Source: a virus (lineage: Duplodnaviria; Heunggongvirae; Uroviricota; Caudoviricetes; Crassvirales). From it: a DNA stretch of 64,000 bases. The notes beneath the pieces are model-generated. The model saw only the letters and a list, made by a program, of their open reading frames with translations. It was not told the DNA's origin and did no database searches. Within the stretch, counting starts at the first letter, position 1; every line of letters starts with the position of its first letter. The position numbers were made by a program, and so were the translations under genes. The DNA is taken from positions 1 to 64,000 of IMG/VR virus record IMGVR_UViG_3300042448_001903. One strand, written 5' to 3'. Shown here piece after piece: positions 1-12,368 of the stretch.

Positions 1-189
1 AAGATCTGATAAAATAACTATTCCTGGTACCCAGCCAAAAACAACTGTTACCATAAGTACTCCTCCAGATGTACAAGCTTCTTTAAAGCTTATATCTAAA
101 TTTGTAAATAAATAATTTAATAAGCCTAAAAATAACCAGGTTAATAAAATACTTGCTATAAAAGCTAGCATCATAATTGTGTTTTTCAT
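1..189 (-). CDS. partial CDS (5-prime part only, runs off window start); hydrophobic N-terminus, probable membrane protein
   Basis: ATG at complement 189-187 opens a 63-codon frame with no stops to position 1 (MKNTIMMLAFIASILLTWLFLGLL...). It is not in the supplied ORF track because it is truncated. It lies downstream of the minus-strand gene 269..505. Confidence 0.3.
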   Translation of the reverse strand, partial: MKNTIMMLAFIASILLTWLFLGLLNYLFTNLDISFKEACTSGGVLMVTVVFGWVPGIVILSDL

Positions 190-268
190 ATAATTGATTT
201 AATTGATGATGTATGAAAAATCCATCATTAACCCCTAAAAAAGAGAATAATGATGGATATAAACGACA

Positions 269-505
269 TTAACAGCATATACTGTTAATGAATTCCTGAG
301 CTTCTTCCCAAGGATCATTCTCATCCTCAGAGTAATAAGGGAAAAACTCTAACTTTTCTTTTACACCAGCTCCATCATTCTCATCAAAAGAATGAAGAAT
401 AGCAATTTCCACTCCCCATCCTGGAGATGTAGAAATACCCTCTGTGTGTAAAATTGCATCTGAATGATAAGAAATCATTTCTTTAGCGAATTCTAAGTTG
501 CTCAT
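269..505 (-). CDS. hypothetical small acidic protein (78 aa)
   Basis: The ORF is in the supplied track. Its composition is coherent (acidic, D/E-rich C-terminal half). It is on the same strand as the neighbouring minus-strand genes. Confidence 0.4.
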   Translation of the reverse strand: MSNLEFAKEMISYHSDAILHTEGISTSPGWGVEIAILHSFDENDGAGVKEKLEFFPYYSEDENDPWEEAQEFINSICC

Positions 506-1032
506 ATAATTGATTTTAATTGGTGACCTCTATAGATATAGCTGTTATCTTACAACCTGATGTCAGCTAGTTTAAAGGTGTATATCTATAGAACGCACAA
601 GGCCTAACACCACCTTGCTAAAAACAAAACATTAATATCCTATACAAAGGAATATAATATATATATAAGAGAGAATAATAAATATATATGTATATTAATG
701 CTATAAATAATCAATACAACCATTAAAATAGGCTTTCAAAAAGAACAAATAAAACCAAAAGAGGGTAACACACCATTCCTCACACTCCAAAAAAACATAT
801 AAATCTTTCATAACTCATTGATTATCAATAGAACATTATAATAAATTTATATATATTAGCCGTAAAACTTTTTCATACATATATATATGTAACAAAAATA
901 TTTTCTTCTATATATATATAGGAAATAAATTTCTTTATATATATAGACAAAAAAGTTTTTATCTAAGCCCACCCTTTAATTCTTTTCCCCCACCCTATAT
1001 ATAAAAGAAGAGAGCCCGAAGGCTCTCATTCT
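506..1032. other. 527-bp AT-rich non-coding region with multiple (TA)n tracts and inverted repeats; candidate origin, DNA-unwinding element or genome terminus
   Basis: No ORF of at least 60 aa is present. (TA)5-6 tracts lie at about 653-668, 683-694, 849-857, 880-890, 908-918 and 938-946. There is a palindrome ACATATATATATGT at about 878-891. A 12-bp inverted repeat TCTATAGATATA/TATATCTATAGA lies at 529-540 and 581-592. Confidence 0.5.
1007..1026 (-). terminator. stem-loop GAGAGCC-CGAA-GGCTCTC immediately 3-prime of the minus-strand gene 1033..1464, followed on the minus strand by a T-rich run
   Basis: There is a perfect 7-bp stem with a 4-nt loop, directly read from the sequence. On the minus strand it is followed by TTCTTTTATATATA. 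Confidence 0.5.
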
Positions 1033-1464
1033 TTAGCTTGCCTTAATAAGGTCTTCCAAGCTCAAACCAGACGGTTTGAAATCCTGCACCTTAATGGTCT
1101 TCACTTCAATCCAGCCAGAAGCAGGTAATGCAGCATAGAAGCCACCATTTTCTGCTTTGATTACTTGGAACCCCATCACTTGTGGGATGGTAAGCTTTCC
1201 AGCTCTAAAAAGCTCATTAACACTTTTGGACATTACAACGTTAGCAACCTTTCCGTCTTTCTTGAACATTAAAGTGGCACGCTTGTCAAGGTTCTTGGTA
1301 ACAGGTAAAAGTTCACAATCGTGAAATAGTTCTTTTACAGTGCCTAAGGTGTTAAGATTTCCATTAGAGGTAAGTTCATCTCTCCAAACAATTTCTTCAA
1401 ATTTTACTGACATGATTTTTGATTTAAGATTAATAATGATGGGGAGGTATGTCGGTTTCCCCAA
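1033..1464 (-). CDS. hypothetical protein (143 aa as given; the ATG at complement 1413 giving MSVKFEEIV... is an equally plausible start)
   Basis: The ORF is in the supplied track. It has non-repetitive, globular-looking composition and is followed by the hairpin at 1007-1026. Confidence 0.5.
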   Translation of the reverse strand: MGKPTYLPIIINLKSKIMSVKFEEIVWRDELTSNGNLNTLGTVKELFHDCELLPVTKNLDKRATLMFKKDGKVANVVMSKSVNELFRAGKLTIPQVMGFQVIKAENGGFYAALPASGWIEVKTIKVQDFKPSGLSLEDLIKAS

Positions 1465-1627
1465 TTATAGGTGGGGTGGCTGATGGGGAGTGGTCTCCTC
1501 AGGGGGGCATATTATAAGTTTTTTGATTTTGAAAAAAATTTTAGCCCCCCCCCTCCACGAAAAAAATTTTTTATCACCCTGTTTAAAGCAAAATTGTGTT
1601 TTTTACACACCCCTGTGTAATATAATA

Positions 1628-1660
1628 TTTGGAATATATATAAATTCTTGTCTATCTTTG
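1628..1660 (+). promoter_or_regulatory. Bacteroidetes sigma-A type promoter TTTG-N21-TATCTTTG upstream of the + strand block
   Basis: TTTG lies at 1628-1631 and TATCTTTG at 1653-1660. This matches the Bacteroides/Flavobacterium -33 TTTG and -7 TAnnTTTG consensus. The identical -7 octamer recurs at three other gene starts in the window. Confidence 0.45.
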
Positions 1661-1732
1661 GGGTGGATTGGGTGGGGAAGGATGTATAAACATTCCTAGA
1701 TAAAGGTTCCTTCATAAACAAAACAAATAAAT

Positions 1733-1978
1733 ATGGAATACATTGGTCTTTTTGTGTTAGTAATAATAATAGGATCTATTATTAGTGGAATACATAATAT
1801 GAGAAGGTTAGAACTAGCTATAGAATTTAATCTTTTCACTTCTCCTTGTTTTAATTTAGGTGTTTCTTTTAATGAGTATTACGTTCCTGAATATATAGAA
1901 CAAGAATTGTTAATAGGGCTATTTTTTATAAATATTTCTCTTATATTTTATAAGGATGGAGAAGAAAGTGGGGTATAA
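1733..1978 (+). CDS. small hydrophobic protein (81 aa), possible membrane protein
   Basis: This is the first + strand ORF downstream of the promoter-like motif at 1628-1660. It has an N-terminal hydrophobic stretch (LFVLVIIIGSIISGI). Confidence 0.3.
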   Translation: MEYIGLFVLVIIIGSIISGIHNMRRLELAIEFNLFTSPCFNLGVSFNEYYVPEYIEQELLIGLFFINISLIFYKDGEESGV

Positions 1979-2014
1979 TATAGCAATACGTATAACAAAT
2001 AATAATAATTATTA

Positions 2015-2045
2015 TTTGATGTTGGATGAACATGTTCTATCTTTG
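2015..2045 (+). promoter_or_regulatory. Bacteroidetes sigma-A type promoter TTTG-N19-TATCTTTG
   Basis: TTTG lies at 2015-2018 and TATCTTTG at 2038-2045, 13 nt upstream of the ATG at 2058. Confidence 0.45.
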
Positions 2046-2057
2046 CATTAATTAAAT

Positions 2058-2411
2058 ATGGAAAACAATAAGTTTATATTACAGAAGTTGAGAAAGTCTT
2101 TTAAGGACGAGTACGAAAAGGCAGAGATGTATTATAATTTTATATCAAGTCTTAATAAGTTAGGATTGACAGAAAGGGAAATACAGCTTGTAGCTTTTAC
2201 AGCTATTAAGGGGAATATTTCTTATGCTAATATACGAGAGGAATTTTGTACAAAGTATAATACAACAGCTCCTACAATAAACAATATTATTTCTAAATTG
2301 AAGAAGGTGGGGGTGTTAGTTAAAGAGGGAACAAAGGTGAAGGTGAATCCAGCTATTGTTCTTAAGTTTGATAATGATATTACATTAGAAATAAAACTAA
2401 TAAATGGATAA
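2058..2411 (+). CDS. putative winged-helix DNA-binding regulator (117 aa)
   Basis: The C-terminal half (TAPTINNIISKLKKVGVLVKEGTKVKVN) resembles an HTH recognition helix plus a beta-hairpin wing of MarR/PadR-like wHTH proteins. It is the first gene after a promoter-like motif. Confidence 0.45.
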   Translation: MENNKFILQKLRKSFKDEYEKAEMYYNFISSLNKLGLTEREIQLVAFTAIKGNISYANIREEFCTKYNTTAPTINNIISKLKKVGVLVKEGTKVKVNPAIVLKFDNDITLEIKLING

Positions 2412-2763
2412 GCCAGTTTCAATGTCTGTCAAAGACTATTTAATTAGAATATTAGCAGTGAAGTCAATGACGTCTGAAAAAGTGATAGAGGCTGTTGTAG
2501 CACATCAATTTCAATCTGCTAATGAGGCTTTGCAAAAAAACAATACAGTGGAGATTTCTGGGTTTGGAAAATTTATATTTAATGTAAATAAAGCAAATAA
2601 AAAGCTAGAGATGTTTGCAAATGTACAACGGATACAAAATGCAGTGTTGGCAGATGAGGCCGCTACAGAAGCAAAGAAACAAAAGGCAATGAGGATTTTA
2701 AATGATGTACAGAATTCTGTACAATTAATAAAAGACAAATTAAAAGAGGGTGATGAAGCTTAA
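2404..2763 (+). CDS. HU/IHF-like DNA-binding protein (divergent, 119 aa)
   Basis: The N-terminal 60 aa align with HU, for example ...NNTVEISGFGKFIF versus HupA ...GDAVQLVGFGTFKV. The GFG(K/T)F motif is characteristic. The DNA-binding arm is divergent. Confidence 0.55.
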   Translation: MDKPVSMSVKDYLIRILAVKSMTSEKVIEAVVAHQFQSANEALQKNNTVEISGFGKFIFNVNKANKKLEMFANVQRIQNAVLADEAATEAKKQKAMRILNDVQNSVQLIKDKLKEGDEA

Positions 2764-3058
2764 TTTTTCCCAGATATTTGAAGGATGGAGAAACGATCTT
2801 TTTCCTCCCGAAGAGCTTAAGAGCATAATTTTGAGTGTTAGTGAGGAGCGAATAAATATATGTGAGCAGTGCCCAGCACATTCTAAGCATCATAAAACAA
2901 TAAGAAAGGATGTTCATTGTACAGCTTGTGGATGTCCTTTAGCTAAAAAAACAAAGTGTCTGTCCTGTGAATGTCCCTTGAAAAAGTGGATGGCCTTGAT
3001 GGATGAAGACAAAGAATCTGAAATATTAAAATCTTTTGATGATGTCCCAGGAGAATAA
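2750..3058 (+). CDS. Cys-rich Zn-ribbon-like small protein (102 aa)
   Basis: There are eight Cys and several His arranged as CEQCP...H..HH...C.ACGC.......C.SCEC, a treble-clef/zinc-ribbon-like spacing. Confidence 0.45.
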   Translation: MMKLNFSQIFEGWRNDLFPPEELKSIILSVSEERINICEQCPAHSKHHKTIRKDVHCTACGCPLAKKTKCLSCECPLKKWMALMDEDKESEILKSFDDVPGE

Positions 3059-3275
3059 CCAATTTGTATTAAGAAAAGTGCCTTTATTAGAATTAGTGAA
3101 TACATTAATTTCTATTTATAATAGAGGAGTGGATTTTGTTGATGTAATAGGGGTGTTAGACGGGAAACAAGATCAGATAGGTATTGCTTATAATGATGAT
3201 TATATTAATACAGAGGAAGAGAAACCAATAACCAATATAAAATTGTCCGATGAGGACTTAAATGAATTAACATGA
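3036..3275 (+). CDS. hypothetical protein (79 aa)
   Basis: The ORF is in the track. It is same-strand and tightly packed with its neighbours. Confidence 0.35.
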   Translation: MMMSQENNQFVLRKVPLLELVNTLISIYNRGVDFVDVIGVLDGKQDQIGIAYNDDYINTEEEKPITNIKLSDEDLNELT

Positions 3276-3454
3276 ACCCAACAGTAGAAGCGTGGATTGT
3301 AATAGAAAAATTAGGAGCATTGTGTGCCACCCCAGGAATATCTGCGGATGTACAGAAAGTTGCAAACGAGCAAATTGAGAAATTATTAAAAGATGTTGTA
3401 TCTCCAGGACTAGCAAAGCTAACAGCTTCAGCTTCTGGTATTATTACAAAATAA
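3272..3454 (+). CDS. hypothetical protein (60 aa)
   Basis: The ORF is in the track. It has an ATGA-type overlap with the upstream gene. Confidence 0.3.
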   Translation: MNPTVEAWIVIEKLGALCATPGISADVQKVANEQIEKLLKDVVSPGLAKLTASASGIITK

Positions 3455-3460
3455 CGTAAT

Positions 3461-3748
3461 ATGAGTGTAAAGAAAAACCATTATTTCCAGGCTATTCATA
3501 TTCTACAGGAATTACATAAAGAGTTTCCCATGTATAATATGGGAAGACATCTTTCAACAGCCTTAGAAGGATATGGTGATATGTGGGGAATAACAGATAA
3601 AGAGCTTGTCTATGCTCTAGAGAAATATAAGGAACAAATAGAGATGGATGTTCCTCATACAGAAGAGTCAGAGATAGATAGGATAATTAAAGAAGGAATG
3701 GATCTTGGCCTCTTGTTTAGAGGAGAAGAGTATGAAGAAGAGACGTAA
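3461..3748 (+). CDS. hypothetical protein (95 aa)
   Basis: The ORF is in the track. Its composition is coherent. Confidence 0.4.
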   Translation: MSVKKNHYFQAIHILQELHKEFPMYNMGRHLSTALEGYGDMWGITDKELVYALEKYKEQIEMDVPHTEESEIDRIIKEGMDLGLLFRGEEYEEET

Positions 3749-3757
3749 ATAAAAAAT

Positions 3758-4090
3758 ATGGCTACACTTAAAAAAACTACATACATAAATGCTGAGTTAG
3801 ATTGGTCTGAACAGCAGCTGCAGTCTTGGAAAGCTTATGTGGATGCAAATCCTTTGCATGAGCTTAAAGATAGGATTGAGTGGAAACCAACATCAAAAGG
3901 AGGAATGCTTCCTATGGTGATAGCCTCTATTGAGGCCCAGGGAAAATTCATCCAAGAAACAATGAAGAATTATTTAGCTTTATTAGAAGTGGTGGAGAAG
4001 CTGAGAGAAAAAGAAGAGGCTAAAGTGGAAGTGAGGGGGAAAGGAGAACTCTCTGGAGCTGCTGCTGAATTCCTAGCAAATAGAAAATAA
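3758..4090 (+). CDS. hypothetical protein (110 aa); position immediately upstream of TerL makes a small terminase subunit role possible
   Basis: Its stop overlaps the TerL start (TAATG at 4088-4092). It is predicted helical with a K/E-rich C-terminus. The call is by position only. Confidence 0.35.
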   Translation: MATLKKTTYINAELDWSEQQLQSWKAYVDANPLHELKDRIEWKPTSKGGMLPMVIASIEAQGKFIQETMKNYLALLEVVEKLREKEEAKVEVRGKGELSGAAAEFLANRK

Positions 4091-6111
4091 TGGAATTACA
4101 AAATATAGATTATAAAGATTGGTTTATAAATCAAAAACGAATTCCAGACAGAGATTCTGTAGAATGTAAACAATTCTTTGATTTCCATAAAGATGTTTGT
4201 TTAAATGGAGCTATGATGGATGGGGTGTATATCAACCCCTTTTTATATTGGCACTTAAACATCTGGCATACAGAAGTGGATGTAATTGATAGCTATGGAA
4301 GAATAGCTCAAAAATATGCCAATCCATTCTTAAGAGATAATGAGTGGTTGGTGTCTAATGAAATTGATAGAGCCCAAGGAGAAAAGAAAGGCCTGGTTAT
4401 TTTAGGAATTAGACGTTTTGCCAAGAGTGTTTTAGAGGCAAGTTATATTGCATGGGGTGCTACATTTGATGAGAATTCTCAAAATATTATTGCTGGATTG
4501 AACGCTCCAGATATAAAACTGATTACAGATAAGATTGATAAGGGGTTAAATTTTATTCCTGAATATTGGAGATGGCAGAGGATTGAGGATAATTGGAAAA
4601 ATCAAGTGACCCTCGGTATCAAAACTAAGAGTGGAGAACGTATTCCTTTTTCTTCTATTCTTATTCGTAACTTAGATGAGGGTAATAATGAAGAAGCAAT
4701 TGCTGGTACAAAACCCCGTAAACTAATTATTGATGAGATAGGAAAAGGATCTTTTCTTAGAGGACTGCAGGCAGCTGTTCCTGGTTTTACAACACCATTT
4801 GGTTGGGGATGTTCTCCAATTCTTACAGGAACAGGGGGAGATATGAAGAAATTTCTTGATGCTAAATCTCTAATGTTTGATGTAGATAATTTTAACTTCC
4901 TTACATATAATAATAGTAAGGATGATAAACGTATTCATGGGTTGTTTATTTCCCATAAATATAGAATGGAAGCAAAAGAGTCTTCTACATTAGGAGCTTT
5001 TTTGGAACAGCCTGCATCAAGTGATCTCCATAATATACAGATGTTAGTGTCTAATGAGGAGAAAGCTACAGAGATTACCAACTCAAACTTAGAAAAGCTT
5101 AAAAAGGCAGGAGACAGAATTGCCTATTTAAAAGAAAAGATGTACTATCCCCAGGAAGTGGATGATATATTCTTAAATGAAGATACAAATATATTTGATA
5201 TAGAGGGGGCTAAAAGACAAAAGGCCAGACTTTTACAGCAAGAAAGAACAGGCACTCCTGTCATATTATTTAATGACGGAGAAAAAATAGCCCATGAATT
5301 TACAGATAAAAGACCTATTTCAAATTTTCCATTAAAGAATAGTGATCTTAAAGACGCTCCTGTAGTGATATATGAGTTTCCTGTAGAAAATCCTCCTTAT
5401 GGATTGTATGTTGCTGGGGTGGACCCATATAGACAAGGTAAATCAGCATACAGTTCTTCTTTAGGATCTGTATATGTTTATAAAAGAATGCACGATCTTA
5501 CAGGGGAAAAATATCAAGATATGTTTGTTGCTTCCTATTGTGCACGTCCTGATAAAAAGGAAATATGGGAAGAGCAGGCCAGGATGTTGATTAAATTCTA
5601 TAATGCTCGTACGTTGTGTGAGAATGATGATATATCATTTATTGAGTATATGAAAGCTAAGGGAGATGCTCATTATTTAGAGAAGCAGCCCGAATGGTTA
5701 AAAGAGATTGTTCCTAATACAACAGTGAAGAGAGACTATGGAATACACCGTTCCAGTGAAAAGATAATTGACTATTTGCACAACTGTTTAAAAAAATACA
5801 CAGAAAGTGTTATATACAAAGAAACCAATGAACAGGGAGATGTTATAAAGGAAGTGCTGGGAATAAGTAAGATATTTGATCCTGTCTTGTTAGAAGAAAT
5901 GATACAATATAATGATTCAGGAAACTTTGACCGAATTATTGCTGCAGAACTAGCCATAGCACAAGCTATGAAAATGGATCCTATAATGGGAAAAATAGGC
6001 GGATCAGGAGATGATAGAGTGCAAGCATTATATTCTAAAAAACCAAAGAATACATTATTTTCACAATCTAATGGATTGTTTAATACTAAAAAACGTAAAT
6101 TGTTTACATAA
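4090..6111 (+). CDS. terL: terminase large subunit (ATPase + nuclease), 673 aa
   Basis: It has a Walker A-like motif GIRRFAKS and a Walker B-like motif KLIIDEIG. A C-terminal RNase-H-like nuclease signature VYVAGVDPYRQG is followed by further acidic residues. The size is typical for TerL and a portal-sized gene follows it. Confidence 0.8.
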   Translation: MELQNIDYKDWFINQKRIPDRDSVECKQFFDFHKDVCLNGAMMDGVYINPFLYWHLNIWHTEVDVIDSYGRIAQKYANPFLRDNEWLVSNEIDRAQGEKKGLVILGIRRFAKSVLEASYIAWGATFDENSQNIIAGLNAPDIKLITDKIDKGLNFIPEYWRWQRIEDNWKNQVTLGIKTKSGERIPFSSILIRNLDEGNNEEAIAGTKPRKLIIDEIGKGSFLRGLQAAVPGFTTPFGWGCSPILTGTGGDMKKFLDAKSLMFDVDNFNFLTYNNSKDDKRIHGLFISHKYRMEAKESSTLGAFLEQPASSDLHNIQMLVSNEEKATEITNSNLEKLKKAGDRIAYLKEKMYYPQEVDDIFLNEDTNIFDIEGAKRQKARLLQQERTGTPVILFNDGEKIAHEFTDKRPISNFPLKNSDLKDAPVVIYEFPVENPPYGLYVAGVDPYRQGKSAYSSSLGSVYVYKRMHDLTGEKYQDMFVASYCARPDKKEIWEEQARMLIKFYNARTLCENDDISFIEYMKAKGDAHYLEKQPEWLKEIVPNTTVKRDYGIHRSSEKIIDYLHNCLKKYTESVIYKETNEQGDVIKEVLGISKIFDPVLLEEMIQYNDSGNFDRIIAAELAIAQAMKMDPIMGKIGGSGDDRVQALYSKKPKNTLFSQSNGLFNTKKRKLFT

Positions 6112-8696
6112 TGGCAATAATAAGATATACAAAAGATGCTACCATAAGGTATGCCTATTTAAACATATTTCCAGATCAGTTTAAAACTGATAAAGAGAAG
6201 GAAGATGAAAGTTGGGTGAAAAACACAATGGACTATTTTGCTAACAAGGCCTATGCTGAATATGTAAAAAACAGAGATACATTTGTTAAAAACTACGATC
6301 TTATTAAGGGTATTTTAAGAATGGAAGATTTTTATCAGGAGCCTCAGGTGAAGAGTTTTACAGAAATGCTAACAACAGATCTTGAACTTCCTGCATATGT
6401 AAAACATTATTCTATTCTCACTACACCAATTAATGAGCTTGTAGGAGAAATTTCTAAAAGACCAGATGCATTTAGAGTGAAAGCTTTTGATGAAGATAGT
6501 CAGTCTGAAGAGTTAGAATTTAAAACTAAGATATTACAAGATTTTGTAATTAGTCAGGCTAAACAAAAGATAATGGAACAAGCCTCCCTCCAAGGACAAG
6601 AACTTGGGGAAGAGGAGCTTCAACAAATGACAATGGATGATGTAAAGGATGAACTTGATAATTACACATCTATAGCTGAAAAATGGGCCAATCATATTCT
6701 TACATGCCAAAAAGCCGAGTTTGTTCTAAAAGAAAAAAGTGAAGATGCTTTTAGAGATATGCTTATATCTGCTAGAGAATTCTATCATATATATGAGGAT
6801 AATTCAAAACTTGGGTTTAATATAGAAGTGGCCAATCCTAAAAATACATGGTTTCTTACCACTCCAGATAGAAAATATATATCAGATCCTACAGGAAGAG
6901 CGCAGGGAGCATATGCTGCTGGTATAGTGCAGGTGATGGAACTCTCCGAAATAATTGAAAGTATTCCAGATCTTACTAAGGAAGAGATAGATCATTTACG
7001 TTCATCTCTCCAAGATTACGGATTAATTAATGTGCGTGAATCCAACCTTGGAAATCCTGATGCTGCTCCAGGTATAGATTCTGTTCAATATGACACTTAT
7101 GATCCTGCTGTTCTTCAGACACGTATGATTATAGAAAGTGAAATGAAAGAAAACAATGATGGATTAAAAGATTTCTTAGGCCTTACATCAAATGTGTCTT
7201 CTTTTGGATACAAATATGTGGTGGTTAGGGCATATTGGATTTCTAAAAAGAAAATAGGTAAGTTGATTTATTTGGATGAGATGGGAAATGAGCAATCTAT
7301 GCTTGTAGACGAAAATTATAAATCAAACACAATTCCTACACAGCAGTCTTTAGAATGGGGATGGATTAATCAATGGTATCAAGGAATAAAGATAGGACCA
7401 GACATCTACCATATAAAACCTTACAAATTATTAAATTATTGTCCTATAATAGGAACTATTCATGAGGTGAAAAATACAGAGGCTAAATCTTTAGTAGACC
7501 TTATGAAACCTTTCCAAGTGCTGTACAATGTTTGTATGAACCAGCTTTATAAACTTCTTGAAAAGGAAGTGGGTAAAGTGTATTTAACATCCATAAGACA
7601 CGTTCCTATTCCAAAAGATGGGGATGCGCAGGATGCTTTAGATGTTTGGGAAATGGAAGCAAGAAACAGGGGTATAGTTTTTATAGATGATAGTCCTGAG
7701 AATTTAAAATCTCCTAGCTCTTTTAACCAGTTTAGAGATATAGATCTTACACGTACACAGGAAATTCAATCTCGTTATCAGCTTGCTATGCAACTTAAAA
7801 CTGAGTGTTGGGAATTAATCGGTATGTCTAGACAAAGAATGGGTTCTATATCTGCAAGTGAATCTGCTACAGGAACTAATGCAGCACTTACTCAATCTTA
7901 TTCCCAGACAGAGCCATTATTTGTAGCCCATGAATATGTATTGGGCCAACTATATCAAGCAATCATTGACGCAGCTTTATATGTAGAAAGTAAAAAACCA
8001 CAATCCACCCTATCATACATCACTTCTGAAGGAGAATCTGCTTTTGTTCAGGTGAATGGATCCGATCTTAAGTTTAGAGATATTAAAGTGTTTTTAACTA
8101 ACAGACCAGAAGATCAGAAGTTGTTTAATGAGATTAGAAGTCTTTCTCAAGCTGCTCTTCAAAATGGTGCCAGTCTTCATGATGTTATTGAGTTGTATTC
8201 TACAAACTCTGTTAGACAGATGAAGAAAGTGTTTAAGACGCTTAAAGAAAGACAGGAACAAATGCAAGACCAACAAATGCAACAGCAGCAGCAGCAAATG
8301 GAACAACAGCAAGAACAAGCTCAAGCTGCCCTTCAACAGGCCCAACAGCAGCATGAAGAAAAACTTGCTCACGATGATTACCAAAAAGAACTTGATAGAC
8401 TATCTAAAGAGAAAATTGCTATCATTTCTGCTACAGGATATGGTAAAGTGGAGAGCGAAGATGTAAATCAAAATGCTGTACCAGATGTTTTAGAGATGAG
8501 TAGACTGGCTGCAGAACAAGTGAGAACCACTAAAGACTACGAAACTAAAATGGCAGATATAAATGCTAAGAACAGATTGGCTAACCAAAAACTTCAAGTG
8601 GAAAGAGAAAAACTTCAAGTGGCCAGGGAAAATCAAGCAAACGATCTTGCTATTGCAAAAGAAAATGCAAAAGGTAGAGCAAAAACTAAAAAATAA
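6111..8696 (+). CDS. putative portal protein (861 aa) with Q-rich coiled-coil C-terminal tail
   Basis: It lies immediately downstream of and overlapping TerL (TAATG). The size fits the large portals of crAss-like phages. The C-terminus is Q/E/K-rich low complexity (QQMQQQQQQMEQQQEQAQAALQQAQQQHEE...). No diagnostic motif was recognised, so the call is by synteny. Confidence 0.55.
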   Translation: MAIIRYTKDATIRYAYLNIFPDQFKTDKEKEDESWVKNTMDYFANKAYAEYVKNRDTFVKNYDLIKGILRMEDFYQEPQVKSFTEMLTTDLELPAYVKHYSILTTPINELVGEISKRPDAFRVKAFDEDSQSEELEFKTKILQDFVISQAKQKIMEQASLQGQELGEEELQQMTMDDVKDELDNYTSIAEKWANHILTCQKAEFVLKEKSEDAFRDMLISAREFYHIYEDNSKLGFNIEVANPKNTWFLTTPDRKYISDPTGRAQGAYAAGIVQVMELSEIIESIPDLTKEEIDHLRSSLQDYGLINVRESNLGNPDAAPGIDSVQYDTYDPAVLQTRMIIESEMKENNDGLKDFLGLTSNVSSFGYKYVVVRAYWISKKKIGKLIYLDEMGNEQSMLVDENYKSNTIPTQQSLEWGWINQWYQGIKIGPDIYHIKPYKLLNYCPIIGTIHEVKNTEAKSLVDLMKPFQVLYNVCMNQLYKLLEKEVGKVYLTSIRHVPIPKDGDAQDALDVWEMEARNRGIVFIDDSPENLKSPSSFNQFRDIDLTRTQEIQSRYQLAMQLKTECWELIGMSRQRMGSISASESATGTNAALTQSYSQTEPLFVAHEYVLGQLYQAIIDAALYVESKKPQSTLSYITSEGESAFVQVNGSDLKFRDIKVFLTNRPEDQKLFNEIRSLSQAALQNGASLHDVIELYSTNSVRQMKKVFKTLKERQEQMQDQQMQQQQQQMEQQQEQAQAALQQAQQQHEEKLAHDDYQKELDRLSKEKIAIISATGYGKVESEDVNQNAVPDVLEMSRLAAEQVRTTKDYETKMADINAKNRLANQKLQVEREKLQVARENQANDLAIAKENAKGRAKTKK

Positions 8697-10628: not shown

Positions 10629-12182
10629 ATGGCAATTCAAACTATTCCAGGTTTAACTGGATTTACTTATGCTCGTGTGGCCTCTATGGACAAACGTGCT
10701 GTTGGTAAATTAACAGATTCTAACCACTTGGAAAGCTTTCACTCAACTGAGCCTGCTGATTATGATAAAAAAATCATCAGCTTATACACTCAGAGCTCAT
10801 TGTACAGCAATGACTTTTTGGATATGATTAATAAGAGCACTCCTTATTACATCGACAATAACAGTGATGCTTGGAAGTGGCAAGTACAAGTTCCTTACAA
10901 ATTTCCTAAAATCATTGATGTTCCAGATAGCACAATCAATTTGAGCAAGCCTGGTATTGATGGCCAAGAGTTTTCTCTTGTATTAGACACAAATGAGTTC
11001 TCTAAGAACGCTATTGTTTCTGTAGGATCTCGTCAGTATGGACCTCGTTTCTACGTAATTAAAGATCCTGTTCCTTGGAACATGGGCTACCTTTACACTT
11101 TCACTTTAGTAACTGACAACCCAACAGTTGATTTCGTAAGCTCTACCTTCTTACAGACTGGTATTGAATTGGAATTAGTTGATGCAGCTATTGGTGAATT
11201 TGATCAAGATCTTTTAGGTCTTCCTCGTTTAGGTGAGCAAATCACTATGTTTGAATCTTTAGGTTCTGCATATGGTTATGAGCACAAAATCACTGAGTGG
11301 GCTGATGACAAAATGATGAGAGATGCTTCTGGTAAGCCTCTAGACATTTTAGTATATGCTCCTCAACGTAGAAATCAACTTCCTTTAACTCGTAATGATG
11401 TTAAATGGGAACCATTTATTGAATTCTGGATGCGTAAATCTATGCTTGAGTTGAAAGTTAAGCGTATGATTTGGAGCAAACCAGGTACAGTGAAAACAAA
11501 CGGTTCTAAGCAAGAGTTGAAGCGTACATCTGCAGGTGTTTACCACAGAATGCGTAACAACGGTAACTTAGTACAATACAACCGTGGTGAGTTCTCTGCT
11601 AACTTAATCCGTTCAGTTTTTGGAGATCTTTTCTACAGACGTGTGGATGTTAAAGACCGTAAGGTTAAAATGTACACTAACGAAGCTGGTTTTGATGTAT
11701 TCCAACAAGCTTTAAAGAATGACGCTTTGAATAGTGGTCTTACTTTCATGGCTGATTCTGGAAATCGTTATATGCAAGGAGAAGGTCAACACATCACTTA
11801 CAACTTTGCTTTCGATGCAATGGTTACTCGTGAGACTGGTCGTGTTGAACTAATTCACTTAAAAGAGTTAGATCTTCCTCAATCAAACTTAGAATTTGGT
11901 CAGAACAAAAAGAGCACTCCAGTATTCATGGTGTTTGATGTGTCTCCAATGTCTGATGGTTCTATGATTAATAATATTCGTGAAGTGAGAATGAAGGGTG
12001 CACCTTCTATGACTTGGGGATATATTGATGGTACTCGTCACCACTTAGGTTTTGCTAAGTCTCAAGGTATGAGTTCTGCAAACAAATTCCCTGGTTACGA
12101 AATCTGGATGAAAGATCGTTGTGATGTATTCATCGAAGATTTATCTCGTACCGTTTTAATTGAGGAAATACCACAATTCTAG
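10629..12182 (+). CDS. putative major capsid protein (517 aa)
   Basis: It is in the canonical position after the scaffold. It shows strongly optimised codon choice (CGT for Arg, GGT, CTT, AAC) unlike most other genes here. A strong hairpin terminator follows directly. The size matches crAss-like MCPs. No database confirmation was possible. Confidence 0.6.
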   Translation: MAIQTIPGLTGFTYARVASMDKRAVGKLTDSNHLESFHSTEPADYDKKIISLYTQSSLYSNDFLDMINKSTPYYIDNNSDAWKWQVQVPYKFPKIIDVPDSTINLSKPGIDGQEFSLVLDTNEFSKNAIVSVGSRQYGPRFYVIKDPVPWNMGYLYTFTLVTDNPTVDFVSSTFLQTGIELELVDAAIGEFDQDLLGLPRLGEQITMFESLGSAYGYEHKITEWADDKMMRDASGKPLDILVYAPQRRNQLPLTRNDVKWEPFIEFWMRKSMLELKVKRMIWSKPGTVKTNGSKQELKRTSAGVYHRMRNNGNLVQYNRGEFSANLIRSVFGDLFYRRVDVKDRKVKMYTNEAGFDVFQQALKNDALNSGLTFMADSGNRYMQGEGQHITYNFAFDAMVTRETGRVELIHLKELDLPQSNLEFGQNKKSTPVFMVFDVSPMSDGSMINNIREVRMKGAPSMTWGYIDGTRHHLGFAKSQGMSSANKFPGYEIWMKDRCDVFIEDLSRTVLIEEIPQF

Positions 12183-12211: not shown

Positions 12212-12250
12212 CCGCTTCCAAAAGAAGCTCATAAATTCAAGAAGAGAATG

Positions 12251-12280
12251 CCCCCCACTTCAGGGTGGGGGAGCTCTTCT
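12251..12280 (+). terminator. GC hairpin CCCCCAC-TTCAGG-GTGGGGG followed by a T-rich stretch; probable (partial) terminator downstream of MCP
   Basis: It has a 7-bp G/C stem in an AT-rich genome followed by CTCTTCTT. This is the typical arrangement for keeping MCP mRNA in excess. Confidence 0.5.
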
Positions 12281-12368
12281 TAAAATACAGATGGATGTGT
12301 TGGGGTGTCTCCCAGCAGCATACTCTTCGATGAGAACCATCTGCTAAAAAACCAAATAAAAACTACAT

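Follow-up and report, generated by a model that had tools for sequence, protein, structure and literature searches.

Why does phage DNA of about 32% G+C gather its runs of G and C at one place, between two sets of genes that are read away from each other? The question is raised by a stretch of 64,000 nucleotides (nt), positions 1 to 64,000 of IMG/VR record IMGVR_UViG_3300042448_001903, which was analysed at its full length and is called the window here. The source is a freshwater crAss-like phage, and the window is that of a distant crAss-like phage. An original prediction, made from the letters alone, had placed a divergent control region near its left end and proposed the G- and C-tracts as candidate G-quadruplex (G4) elements or protein-binding sites. 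Comparison with related phages showed that these tracts are the conserved cores of three cis-elements in one divergent control region:

1660-1681, + strand (non-template): G-box, reading GGGG-T-GG-ATT-GGG-T-GGGG-AA-GG
1628-1660, + strand: promoter of the rightward (virion/packaging) arm, Bacteroidota-type, found by pattern scan and position matrix, to which the G-box is joined (together 1628-1681, element 1)
1440-1541, + strand: element 2, about 100 nt, non-coding, found with a profile hidden Markov model (E = 7e-10 in the window)
968-995, - strand: element 3, the mirrored four-tract block, reading GGGTGGGGG-AAAAGAATTAAA-GGGTGGG

Clustered tracts at a divergent junction

The clustering of the tracts is not due to chance. 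Eleven distinct G/C runs of at least 4 nt were counted in 960-1690, against 1.56 expected (Poisson P = 8e-7), which makes this the top 750-nt window of the 64 kb (the next best holds 7). A run of nine C (C9) exceeds every other G/C homopolymer of the 64 kb in length. Of the seven G4Hunter regions with a score of 1.5 or more, five fall in 965-1690, with scores of 2.0 at 1652-1687 (the window maximum), 1.8 at 1464-1497 and 1.56 at 967-996. All of the tracts described earlier are present, with small corrections of place. The tract GGTGGGGTGGCTGATGGGGAGTGG occupies 1470-1493 rather than 1471-1494, and the mirror-image C-tracts given as 971-994 are CCCACCC at 968-974 and CCCCCACCC at 987-995. The G6 at 1502-1507, the C9 at 1545-1553 and the A7T6 that follows (1560-1572) stand as described, and so does GGGGTGGATTGGGTGGGGAAGG at 1660-1681, directly after the -7 box; the C-tracts at 968-995 are indeed its mirror image on the opposite strand. 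The proposed G4 propensity was found as G4Hunter regions of 1.5 or more, and not as a classical (G3+N1-7)x4 motif, none of which occurs within the window. When loops of up to 12 nt were allowed, 968-995 was the sole qualifying motif.

The control region is a single divergent junction between a leftward early arm and a rightward virion and packaging arm. The + strand holds essentially all genes from 1733 to the window end, and the - strand genes lie left of 1413, in agreement with the divergence proposed before: the minus gene starts at ATG 1413 and the plus gene at 1733. The 143-aa reading of this minus gene, from TTG 1464, runs into a conserved non-coding element, and the 126-aa form from ATG 1413 is more probable; positions 1414-1464 are a conserved non-coding leader and hairpin. 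The layout matches that of phage phi14:2, in which the g110-to-g066 block (including TerL, g094) diverges from g111. In phi14:2, the arm opposite the structural arm is early and is read by the virion polymerase, whereas the host polymerase reads the structural arm from "middle" promoters, one of which lies upstream of g110 (preprint 10.1101/2020.03.07.982082).

A near-identity search with 1-6200 against 50,697 phage records gave no match, so relatives had to be sought through TerL. The TerL of the window (4090-6111) matches phrog_6681 (E = 4e-85), and its closest deposited relatives are those of Leptolyngbya phage Lbo-JY46 (41% amino acid identity), Cellulophaga phages phi17:2 and phi4:1 (33%) and many Crassvirales (26-30%). 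Scanning IMG/VR with this protein gave 395 relatives, of which the best 80 (84-95% amino acid identity) were taken for comparison; overall, the comparison took in more than 100 related metagenomic contigs, and those of genome size measure about 102-118 kb. The closest relative, L001, shares 85% nucleotide identity, and the intergenic DNA of the other relatives does not align. At nearly every relative locus, a + strand G4Hunter peak was observed 2.0-2.9 kb upstream of TerL, with very few peaks elsewhere.

The G-box at the promoter of the rightward arm

The primary sigma factor of Bacteroidota recognizes promoters with -7 TAnnTTTG and, some 19-21 nt before it, -33 TTTG. In the window, the -33 element TTTGG (1628-1632) is followed by a spacer of about 20-21 nt and the -7 element TATCTTTG (1653-1660), the only perfect TAnnTTTG of the intergenic region. 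With the start position inferred from the generally known distance between the -7 element and the start, the G-box is expected to span the discriminator and the transcription start, to about +1 to +18. The original prediction had asked whether the tracts are conserved in related phages and named their absence there as grounds for refutation. These grounds do not hold: the G-box was found in 68/68 relatives that reach the site, and the mirrored block in 52 loci. Two forms of the G-box were seen, 49 of type A (GGGGTGG-N1-3-GGGTGGG) and 19 of type B (G7-ATTTA-G7), the latter being a canonical G3-N1-G3-N5-G3-N1-G3 motif. In all relatives the G4Hunter peak stood immediately after a promoter of this kind: TAnCTTTG lies about 20 nt beyond AAAATAAATTTGG and leads straight into G-rich sequence.

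A position matrix was built from 64 non-redundant relatives. Because this set had been selected for G-richness and the -7 TTTG belonged to the search pattern, the unbiased count of 68/68 was needed beside it. The matrix showed an A-tract (UP-like) at -41 to -33, TTTGG at -32 to -28 (1.74 bits per base at the -33 GG) and T-A-n-C-T-T-T-G at -7 to 0; within the latter, the A at -6 and the C at -4 (0.84 each) alone are independent of the search. G was high at 0-3, 5-6 and 9-16; positions +4, +7 and +8 were free, and conservation ended at about +17. The distance between the two G blocks of the G-box varies from about 7 to 14 nt among relatives, which argues against a rigid sequence-specific dimer. 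As for co-variation of the G-box type with the downstream proteins, both types occur with all of them at similar identity.

The G-box is single-copy in each genome and always lies 2.0-2.9 kb upstream of TerL. An IMG/VR pattern scan gave no second promoter-type copy in any returned locus, with TerL 2.0-2.9 kb downstream where the locus was long enough, and none of the six other promoter-like sites of the window carries a G-box. A G-box promoter in bacteria was also considered; a stricter pattern was run over 596 Gb of bacterial genomes, and all 22 matches were judged to be chance.

The nearest mapped counterparts are the "middle" promoters P110, P108, P075 and P070 of phi14:2 (Drobysheva et al., preprint 10.1101/2020.03.07.982082). 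P110 was mapped by primer extension and is used by the host RNA polymerase (10.1101/2020.03.07.982082). Like the window promoter, Bacteroidota and phi14:2 promoters have TTTGG behind an A-rich tract and TAnCTTTG after a spacer of about 20 nt, and P110 is likewise the first promoter of the TerL/virion arm at a divergent junction. Its sequence, GATATTTGGATATCTCAGAATTAAGTATTATCTTTG, is visibly similar to that of the window, but it continues past the -7 element as TAGTATGG. At the equivalent position, phi14:2, Lbo-JY46 and phi17:2 have promoters of the same skeleton without a G-box, in contrast to the clade of the window, which always fuses a G-rich block of 17-22 nt to it. This indicates a clade-specific addition to a known promoter type. 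In Lbo-JY46 (L083, about 840-905), the TerL arm opens with a textbook promoter of the Bacteroidota type, TTTTGG-N-TTATCTTTG, which follows An/Tn tracts. This phage, which holds the closest deposited TerL to the window, was deposited as a cyanophage; its true host may be a Bacteroidota member of a non-axenic culture.

Two further features flank the G-box promoter:

1694-1706, + strand: downstream box TCCTAGATAAAGG (family consensus about YCCTWYAKATAKA), seen in the alignment of 22 relatives about 35-45 nt after the G-box
1603-1620, either strand: inverted repeat TTACACA-CCCC-TGTGTAA, just upstream of the -33 element, conserved in L001

The downstream box YCCTWYAKATAKA is present in most relatives, where it often forms the 3' side of an AGGA...TCCT hairpin. 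The first half of the G-box is complementary, in one subfamily, to a downstream CTCC(T/A)C(CCTC), and this complementarity suggests a possible alternative between hairpin and quadruplex.

The placement of the G-box raises the possibility that the G-run acts through RNA polymerase alone, with no quadruplex. It could provide a G-rich discriminator or core-recognition contact that stabilizes the open complex, or it could support pyrG-like reiterative transcription, in which a poly-G leader pairs with the conserved downstream YCCT box. The G-run takes its first G from the -7 box and extends over the expected start site, type B starts with G7, and the only consensus pairs found by RNAalifold over 22 relatives join the first GGGG with the downstream (T/C)CCT, in 22/22 sequences. 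However, this consensus pairing is very weak (-0.33 kcal/mol) and shows no compensatory changes, and the second GGGTGGG block, the four-tract mirrored element and its long-loop hairpin would be left unexplained. The leader RNA of the window, when folded by itself, also showed no excess structure (z = 0.17). An effect through the polymerase alone is, in our view, improbable.

Measures of G4 propensity were also obtained for the related G-boxes. A relaxed G2+ pattern was passed by 55/64, and 66% scored at least 1.5 with G4Hunter. When a G4-aware RNA fold was used, the quadruplex was chosen for the G-boxes of L001 and L008.

The mirrored block and the case for quadruplex folding

Element 3 lies on the opposite strand behind the end of the first early gene, within an array read from 1003 to 968:

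1010-1027, - strand: intrinsic-terminator-like hairpin GAGAGCC-TTCG-GGCTCTC with a T-run that extends to 1003, found by terminator scan; it closes early gene 1
996-1003, - strand: TATATATA box, with the terminator T-run before it and the first GGGTGGG of element 3 after it

The TATATATA box was present in 24 relatives that match a strict TATA-anchored pattern, with variant forms in others. The relatives also have hairpins at the end of gene 1, different in sequence but in the same place and order before element 3. In the window, element 3 has four tracts of three or more G (G3+) with loops of 1, 12 and 1 nt, and thus fits the extended G4 motif. In relatives it reads either GGGTGGG-loop-GGGTGGG or GGGTGTAGGGGTTAGGGGTTGAGGGG, and both forms keep the four G3+ tracts; in some, an element 3 of the GGGTGTAGGGGTTAGGGG type is a canonical G4 motif. 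When the G4-aware RNA fold was applied to element 3 of the window, the quadruplex was picked (-7.4 vs -1.8 kcal/mol).

A census of four-tract motifs was then taken over 67 loci (1.27 Mb, both strands) with the pattern G3+N1-7 G3+N1-20 G3+N1-7 G3+, which had been chosen after element 3 was seen. Seventy-nine motifs were found. Fifty-three of them, from 52 loci, are minus-strand motifs 300-1200 nt to the left of element 2; 24 lie on the plus strand, 0-1300 nt right of the element 2 start; and only 2 lie elsewhere. The G-rich strand is always the sense strand of outward transcription. Moreover, a second IMG/VR scan gave TATA-GGGTGGG-loop-GGGTGGG in at least 118 loci, and in the 73 of these that also hold element 2 the two never shared a strand; their median distance was 504 nt.

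The central loop of element 3 varies as would be expected of a loop in a quadruplex. Loops of 10-12 nt (the window, L001, L046 and L068) are A-rich and contain no hairpin. Loops of 13-21 nt contain a hairpin that starts at the tract boundary and is followed by a T/A tail of 3-4 nt; one such long-loop form is GGGTGGGCATTAACAATGCTTTGGGTGGGG. The summed length of stems anchored in this way was 145, against 83 +/- 5.6 in 1000 shuffles (z = 11; no shuffle reached 100), and stems of at least 4 bp were found in 25 of 38 loops where 3.2 were expected. About ten unrelated stems occur, for example GCAT/ATGC, GTGTT/AACAC, GAATTA/TAATTC and AAAGAA/TTCTTT, and further GAATAT/ATATTC, GTTG/CAAC and GAGC/GCTC. 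Such unrelated stems amount to compensatory change, which requires a single-stranded state. Within the control region, covariation is confined to this loop hairpin.

These comparisons give good support to selection on G-tract structure where transcription starts. The different sequence solutions, the free loops and the variable spacing favour it over a base-specific protein site, and so do the constant sense strand, the placement at promoter and terminator, and the covarying hairpin. The reading that we put first, with about even confidence, is that the outward-facing G blocks fold into G-quadruplexes and thereby tune initiation or early elongation. The two outward-facing four-tract motifs, each made from two GGGTGG(G) units on the sense (non-template) strands, lie at or near the expected starts of the outward transcription units. 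According to this reading, the G-rich strand would fold into a quadruplex once it becomes single-stranded. Single strands could be available where the DNA is melted or transcribed, perhaps alongside an R-loop, or in the 5' end of the transcript. Relatives whose central loop is long would form a quadruplex-duplex hybrid. The strength or timing of the outward transcription units would then depend on this fold. The sequences themselves show the clustering beyond chance, the promoter setting, the conservation in single copy, the constant strand, the four tracts and the covarying loop hairpin; we infer the folding, its occurrence in DNA or in RNA, the start position and the regulatory effect.

Comparable structures are known. 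Promoter-proximal quadruplexes of the non-template strand exist, for example Pu27 of the c-MYC nuclease-hypersensitive element (NHE) III1, and quadruplex-duplex hybrids carry a hairpin in a long loop. Pu27 shares with the window the GGGTGGG units with one-nucleotide T loops, and GGGTGGGGAAGG of the window is the 3' end of Pu27; the hairpin-bearing central loops of element 3 in the relatives resemble the hybrids. In contrast to quadruplexes of the c-MYC type, the setting here would be a Bacteroidota phage with a bacterial polymerase, and the full set of four GGG tracts is missing from many G-boxes, which have one GG tract.

Several points weigh against quadruplex folding. The relatives are not independent of one another, and the census pattern was, as stated, chosen after the fact. 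The G-box of the window has only three G3+ tracts, and the G4-aware RNA fold prefers for it hairpins with the downstream C/U-rich sequence. Among the 64 related G-boxes only 14 (type B) are canonical G4 motifs, and the mean G4Hunter score of 1.57 is a modest excess over that of shuffles of the same composition (1.40). Furthermore, the first G-run overlaps the -7 and discriminator positions contacted by sigma and RNA polymerase, so the polymerase could read G-richness directly. The T within GGGTGGG is strongly conserved, which also fits sequence-specific recognition.

This last point leads to the possibility that the G blocks are operators bound by a sequence-specific DNA-binding protein of phage or host. 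Such a protein would sit on the start and keep the virion-arm promoter and the next early unit silent until the right time; we consider this reading unlikely. Overlap with the start site is the classical position of a repressor, GGGTGGG is a direct repeat with a conserved internal T, and a near-consensus host promoter for late genes needs some mechanism of delay. Candidate binding proteins are encoded immediately downstream, among the first genes of the rightward arm:

1733-1978, + strand: rightward-arm gene 1, 81 aa, hydrophobic
2058-2411, + strand: weak winged-helix protein of 117 aa, weak helix-turn-helix match, Phage_rep_O-like
2404-2763, + strand: HU/IHF-family protein, Pfam PF00216, 33.4 bits

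Lineage-specific palindromes in the region were also taken as a sign of protein binding. On the other hand, the spacing between the units varies from about 1 to 21 nt, two unlike sequence versions occur among close relatives with the same downstream proteins, and the covarying hairpin between the units needs single-stranded nucleic acid. As for the palindromes themselves, other lineages (L007-L035, L008, L018-L023, L056, L061 and L064) carry TTCCACGTGGAA, GTAAAGCTATAGCTTTAC (in several copies) or ATGTCCCTTATAAGGGACAT between element 2 and the G-box promoter; these and the repeat at 1603-1620 look like operators for different regulators. Protection of DNA ends in the manner of Chi was also considered and rejected, by reasoning only, because the orientation of the blocks would guard only the approximately 700 nt between them.

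Quadruplex folding remains our preferred reading, and two observations may be added on the surroundings of GGGTGGG. Beyond element 3 in the early direction, 506-1003 is an AT-rich stretch of about 450 nt free of open reading frames (ORFs), with 3-4 tandem units of about 28 nt, each made of an AnTn-like tract and TATATATA (for example 880-904, 909-933 and 936-960). In phi14:2, intergenic regions of the early arm yield abundant early long non-coding RNAs (10.1101/2020.03.07.982082); the stretch in the window could give such an RNA or could be an AT-rich unwinding region. Elsewhere, at 12240-12282, after a 517-aa gene (10629-12182), a long stem-loop reads AAGAAGAG..CCCCCCAC-TTCA-GGGTGGGGG..CTCTTCTT. 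The GGGTGGG at this site is paired with its own complement, making it a terminator-like hairpin with no free G block.

Element 2, the DNA-landmark reading and significance

The tracts at 1470-1507, which had been proposed as G4 candidates together with the others, belong to element 2 and are distinct from both G blocks. The parts of this element and its neighbours are as follows:

1441-1462, + strand: hairpin GGGGAGG...TTTCCCC
1465-1480, + strand: TTATAG+GTGGGGTGG
1485-1500, + strand: hairpin GGGGAG-TGGT-CTCCTC
1502-1507, + strand: G6
1502-1572, either strand: imperfect inverted repeat G6 - T6 GATTTTG A7T4 - C9, then A7T6, seen in the sequence
1033-1413, - strand: first leftward (early) gene, 126 aa from ATG 1413

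In the family, the order of element 2 is a G/C hairpin, CCCCAAC, TTATAGGAGGGGTTG, TGGAGTAGCCTCCTCTCCCAT, ATACAAT, a G-run and an AnTn tract. The profile, made from 47 sequences, found it as a single copy on the + strand of 67 loci including the window, always adjoining the start of the first leftward gene; in L001 it is nearly identical, against about 85% identity in the neighbouring gene. Four-tract motifs occur in element 2 of only 3 loci, as its G-runs alternate with complementary C-runs. By its sequence, element 2 is not G4-like, so the G4 proposal gained comparative support for the blocks at 1660-1681 and 968-995 and lost it for the tracts at 1470-1507. Structured RNA was considered for element 2 and for the early-strand leader, and rejected for both: RNAalifold gave -3.3 kcal/mol with no real covariation for the former, and the single-strand fold of the latter was no better than shuffles (z = -0.18). 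An Rfam scan of 1-4000 with E up to 1 also gave no match.

The G6 and C9 had been regarded as prone to slipped-strand changes. As contingency tracts, they would phase-vary the expression of the flanking genes. The length of C9, unmatched by any other G/C homopolymer of the 64 kb, and a single G7 to G8 difference among 8 type-B G-box variants could be taken in this sense. However, C9 is identical in L001 and absent from all other relatives, and G6 is G5A in L001, a substitution without change of length. Neither tract lies within an ORF or between the -33 and -7 elements: C9 is 75 nt upstream of the -33 element and G6 is inside element 2. The sequences thus give no sign of slippage here, and phase variation through these tracts is exceedingly improbable. 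The other relatives keep the AnTn tract and G-runs at this place without G6 or C9, which appear specific to the lineage of the window and L001. In the DNA fold, G6C pairs with GC6 and T6 with A6 (z = -2.55).

For the first early gene no PHROG or Pfam match was found. It is hypervariable: the window version was seen in only one IMG/VR contig, and the relatives have at least two or three different N-termini. The gene is bracketed by the conserved element 2 on one side and by the terminator and element 3 on the other, which recalls the exchangeable early-gene cassettes of T4-type phages. A host-type promoter for this gene was sought and rejected, as only two -7-like boxes with one mismatch were found, neither with a -33 TTG.

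Phage N4 uses hairpin promoters for its virion RNA polymerase, in several copies, with a stem of 5-7 bp and a 3-nt loop on the template strand. Like N4, the window has a small G/C hairpin about 30 nt upstream of the first early gene and no host-type promoter there. This small hairpin has stems of 4-6 bp and loops of 3-12 nt, in one copy per locus of 13-22 kb, and its stability is nearly equal on the two strands. Unlike the N4 promoters, element 2 is thus found once per locus, without strand asymmetry or covariation. A similar hairpin, TTGGGGA-TAC-TCCCCAA, lies at the equivalent place in phi14:2. The best match of the element 2 profile in 95 kb of three reference phages was a weak one in phi14:2 (E = 0.59), at the equivalent place and orientation next to g111 (TTGGGGATACTCCCCAA...GTGGGGG). 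Element 2 is a candidate early promoter or entry site. In the leader of the early gene (1414-1440), a 12-mer, TTTAAGATTAAT (+ strand), is common to the g111 leader of phi14:2 (L082 48085-48110), despite the very distant relationship of the two phages.

The junction could also serve as a DNA-level site for replication, packaging or both, with the G-runs and AnTn tracts as its landmarks. It might be a transcription-primed origin with an R-loop or G4 primer, or an HU/IHF-bent entry site of pac/cos type for terminase. The cumulative GC skew has its minimum at about 1000-1500, and the G blocks are bordered by AnTn tracts and tandem AT-rich repeats. TerL follows 2.4-3.1 kb downstream of the site, and the HU/IHF gene and the weak Phage_rep_O-like winged helix are encoded directly after it. 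In prototypic crAssphage, origins and termini were predicted at the strand switch (PMC10983915, preprint). Unrelated phage contigs with [hairpin]-AAAATTTT-TATA-G-rich blocks at divergent junctions beside terminase genes point in the same direction, and the control region holds about four times as many contig ends as expected (about 7-8 of 44 nearby ends, against about 2). However, the skew is confounded with gene orientation, the contigs end at different G/C runs and not at one nucleotide, as assembly breaks would give, and the fusion of the G-box to the -7 box and of element 3 to a terminator points to transcription. We regard this role as quite unlikely.

The independent metagenomic contigs that end in or at the G/C runs of the control region are L019, L021, L026, L036, L045, L051, L074 and L079, with ones of 104 kb and 114 kb among them; L045 begins right after the first G7 of its own G-box. 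A physical terminus was considered on this basis and rejected: the ends lie at different positions and look like places where assembly or coverage broke off in G-rich DNA. The G-rich theme in the unrelated viral contigs (47-55% G+C) was seen in L297 (10760-10985), L314, L301, L256, L237 (3364-3419), L236 and L241, as a hairpin with a T-run, AAAATTTT, TATA and a long G-rich block (GGGGGTGGGGGG...). In L297 and L237 the block is essentially the sole strong G4Hunter region of the locus, at a divergent junction beside terminase and portal genes, and its G-rich strand is directed away from the terminase genes.

Known landmarks show the same mixture of likeness and difference. In lambda cos, a G-rich cosN stands beside an IHF-bent cosB, and herpesvirus pac1 is a packaging signal of G-run, T-rich sequence and G-run. 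Similarly, the window has an A/T tract between G/C runs upstream of its terminase module, and the phage encodes an HU/IHF-family protein. Unlike these sites, the one here is 2.4-3 kb from TerL, permits no unique terminus to be inferred and has its blocks tied to a promoter and a terminator. T4 oriF is an origin of the promoter-plus-R-loop type. In mitochondria, conserved sequence block II downstream of the light-strand promoter (LSP-CSB II, G6AG8) is an R-loop or hybrid G-quadruplex primer site (PMC3488243, PMC4176368). As at CSB II, the promoter of the window is followed at once by two G-runs on the non-template strand, type-B G7-ATTTA-G7 resembles G6AG8, and the location is at a GC-skew switch. 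Unlike CSB II and oriF, the site here is known from sequence only, with a skew confounded with gene direction. A more specific proposal is a long shot: both G4 motifs, one of them with its covarying hairpin loop, would join with element 2 between them, with the AnTn tracts and with the AT-rich repeats to make up a bidirectional transcription-primed origin or packaging start for the clade. The promoter-proximal G-runs would form CSB II-like R-loops or hybrid quadruplexes, and these structures would give a primer or entry point to the replication or terminase machinery of the phage. If this were true, the early-to-late switch would be coupled to DNA metabolism.

Other features of the window fit a crAss-like phage. 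An 861-aa ORF (6111-8696) occupies the expected portal position by synteny with phi14:2, other large ORFs are present, and giant + strand ORFs of 2229, 4157 and 2150 aa, at 21-55 kb, are typical of crAss-like virion polymerase modules. No tRNA was found by a tRNA scan.

To our knowledge, G-quadruplexes of bacteria and phages are usually claimed to be functional from counts of motifs alone. The evidence here is instead comparative: every relative retains the motifs, built from differing sequences, and they are essentially unique to the control region across 1.27 Mb of related sequence. The two outward-facing G blocks appear to be the best comparative case that this analysis offers for functional elements of the G-quadruplex type in a phage. 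We also know of no recognition sequence for the virion RNA polymerase that transcribes the early genes of these phages; here a conserved element of about 100 nt is defined beside the first early gene, which has no host-type promoter. The crAss-like phages are very abundant and mostly uncultured, and the timing of their gene expression is poorly understood. For this group, the control region provides a concrete case for nucleic-acid structure at the early/late control point.

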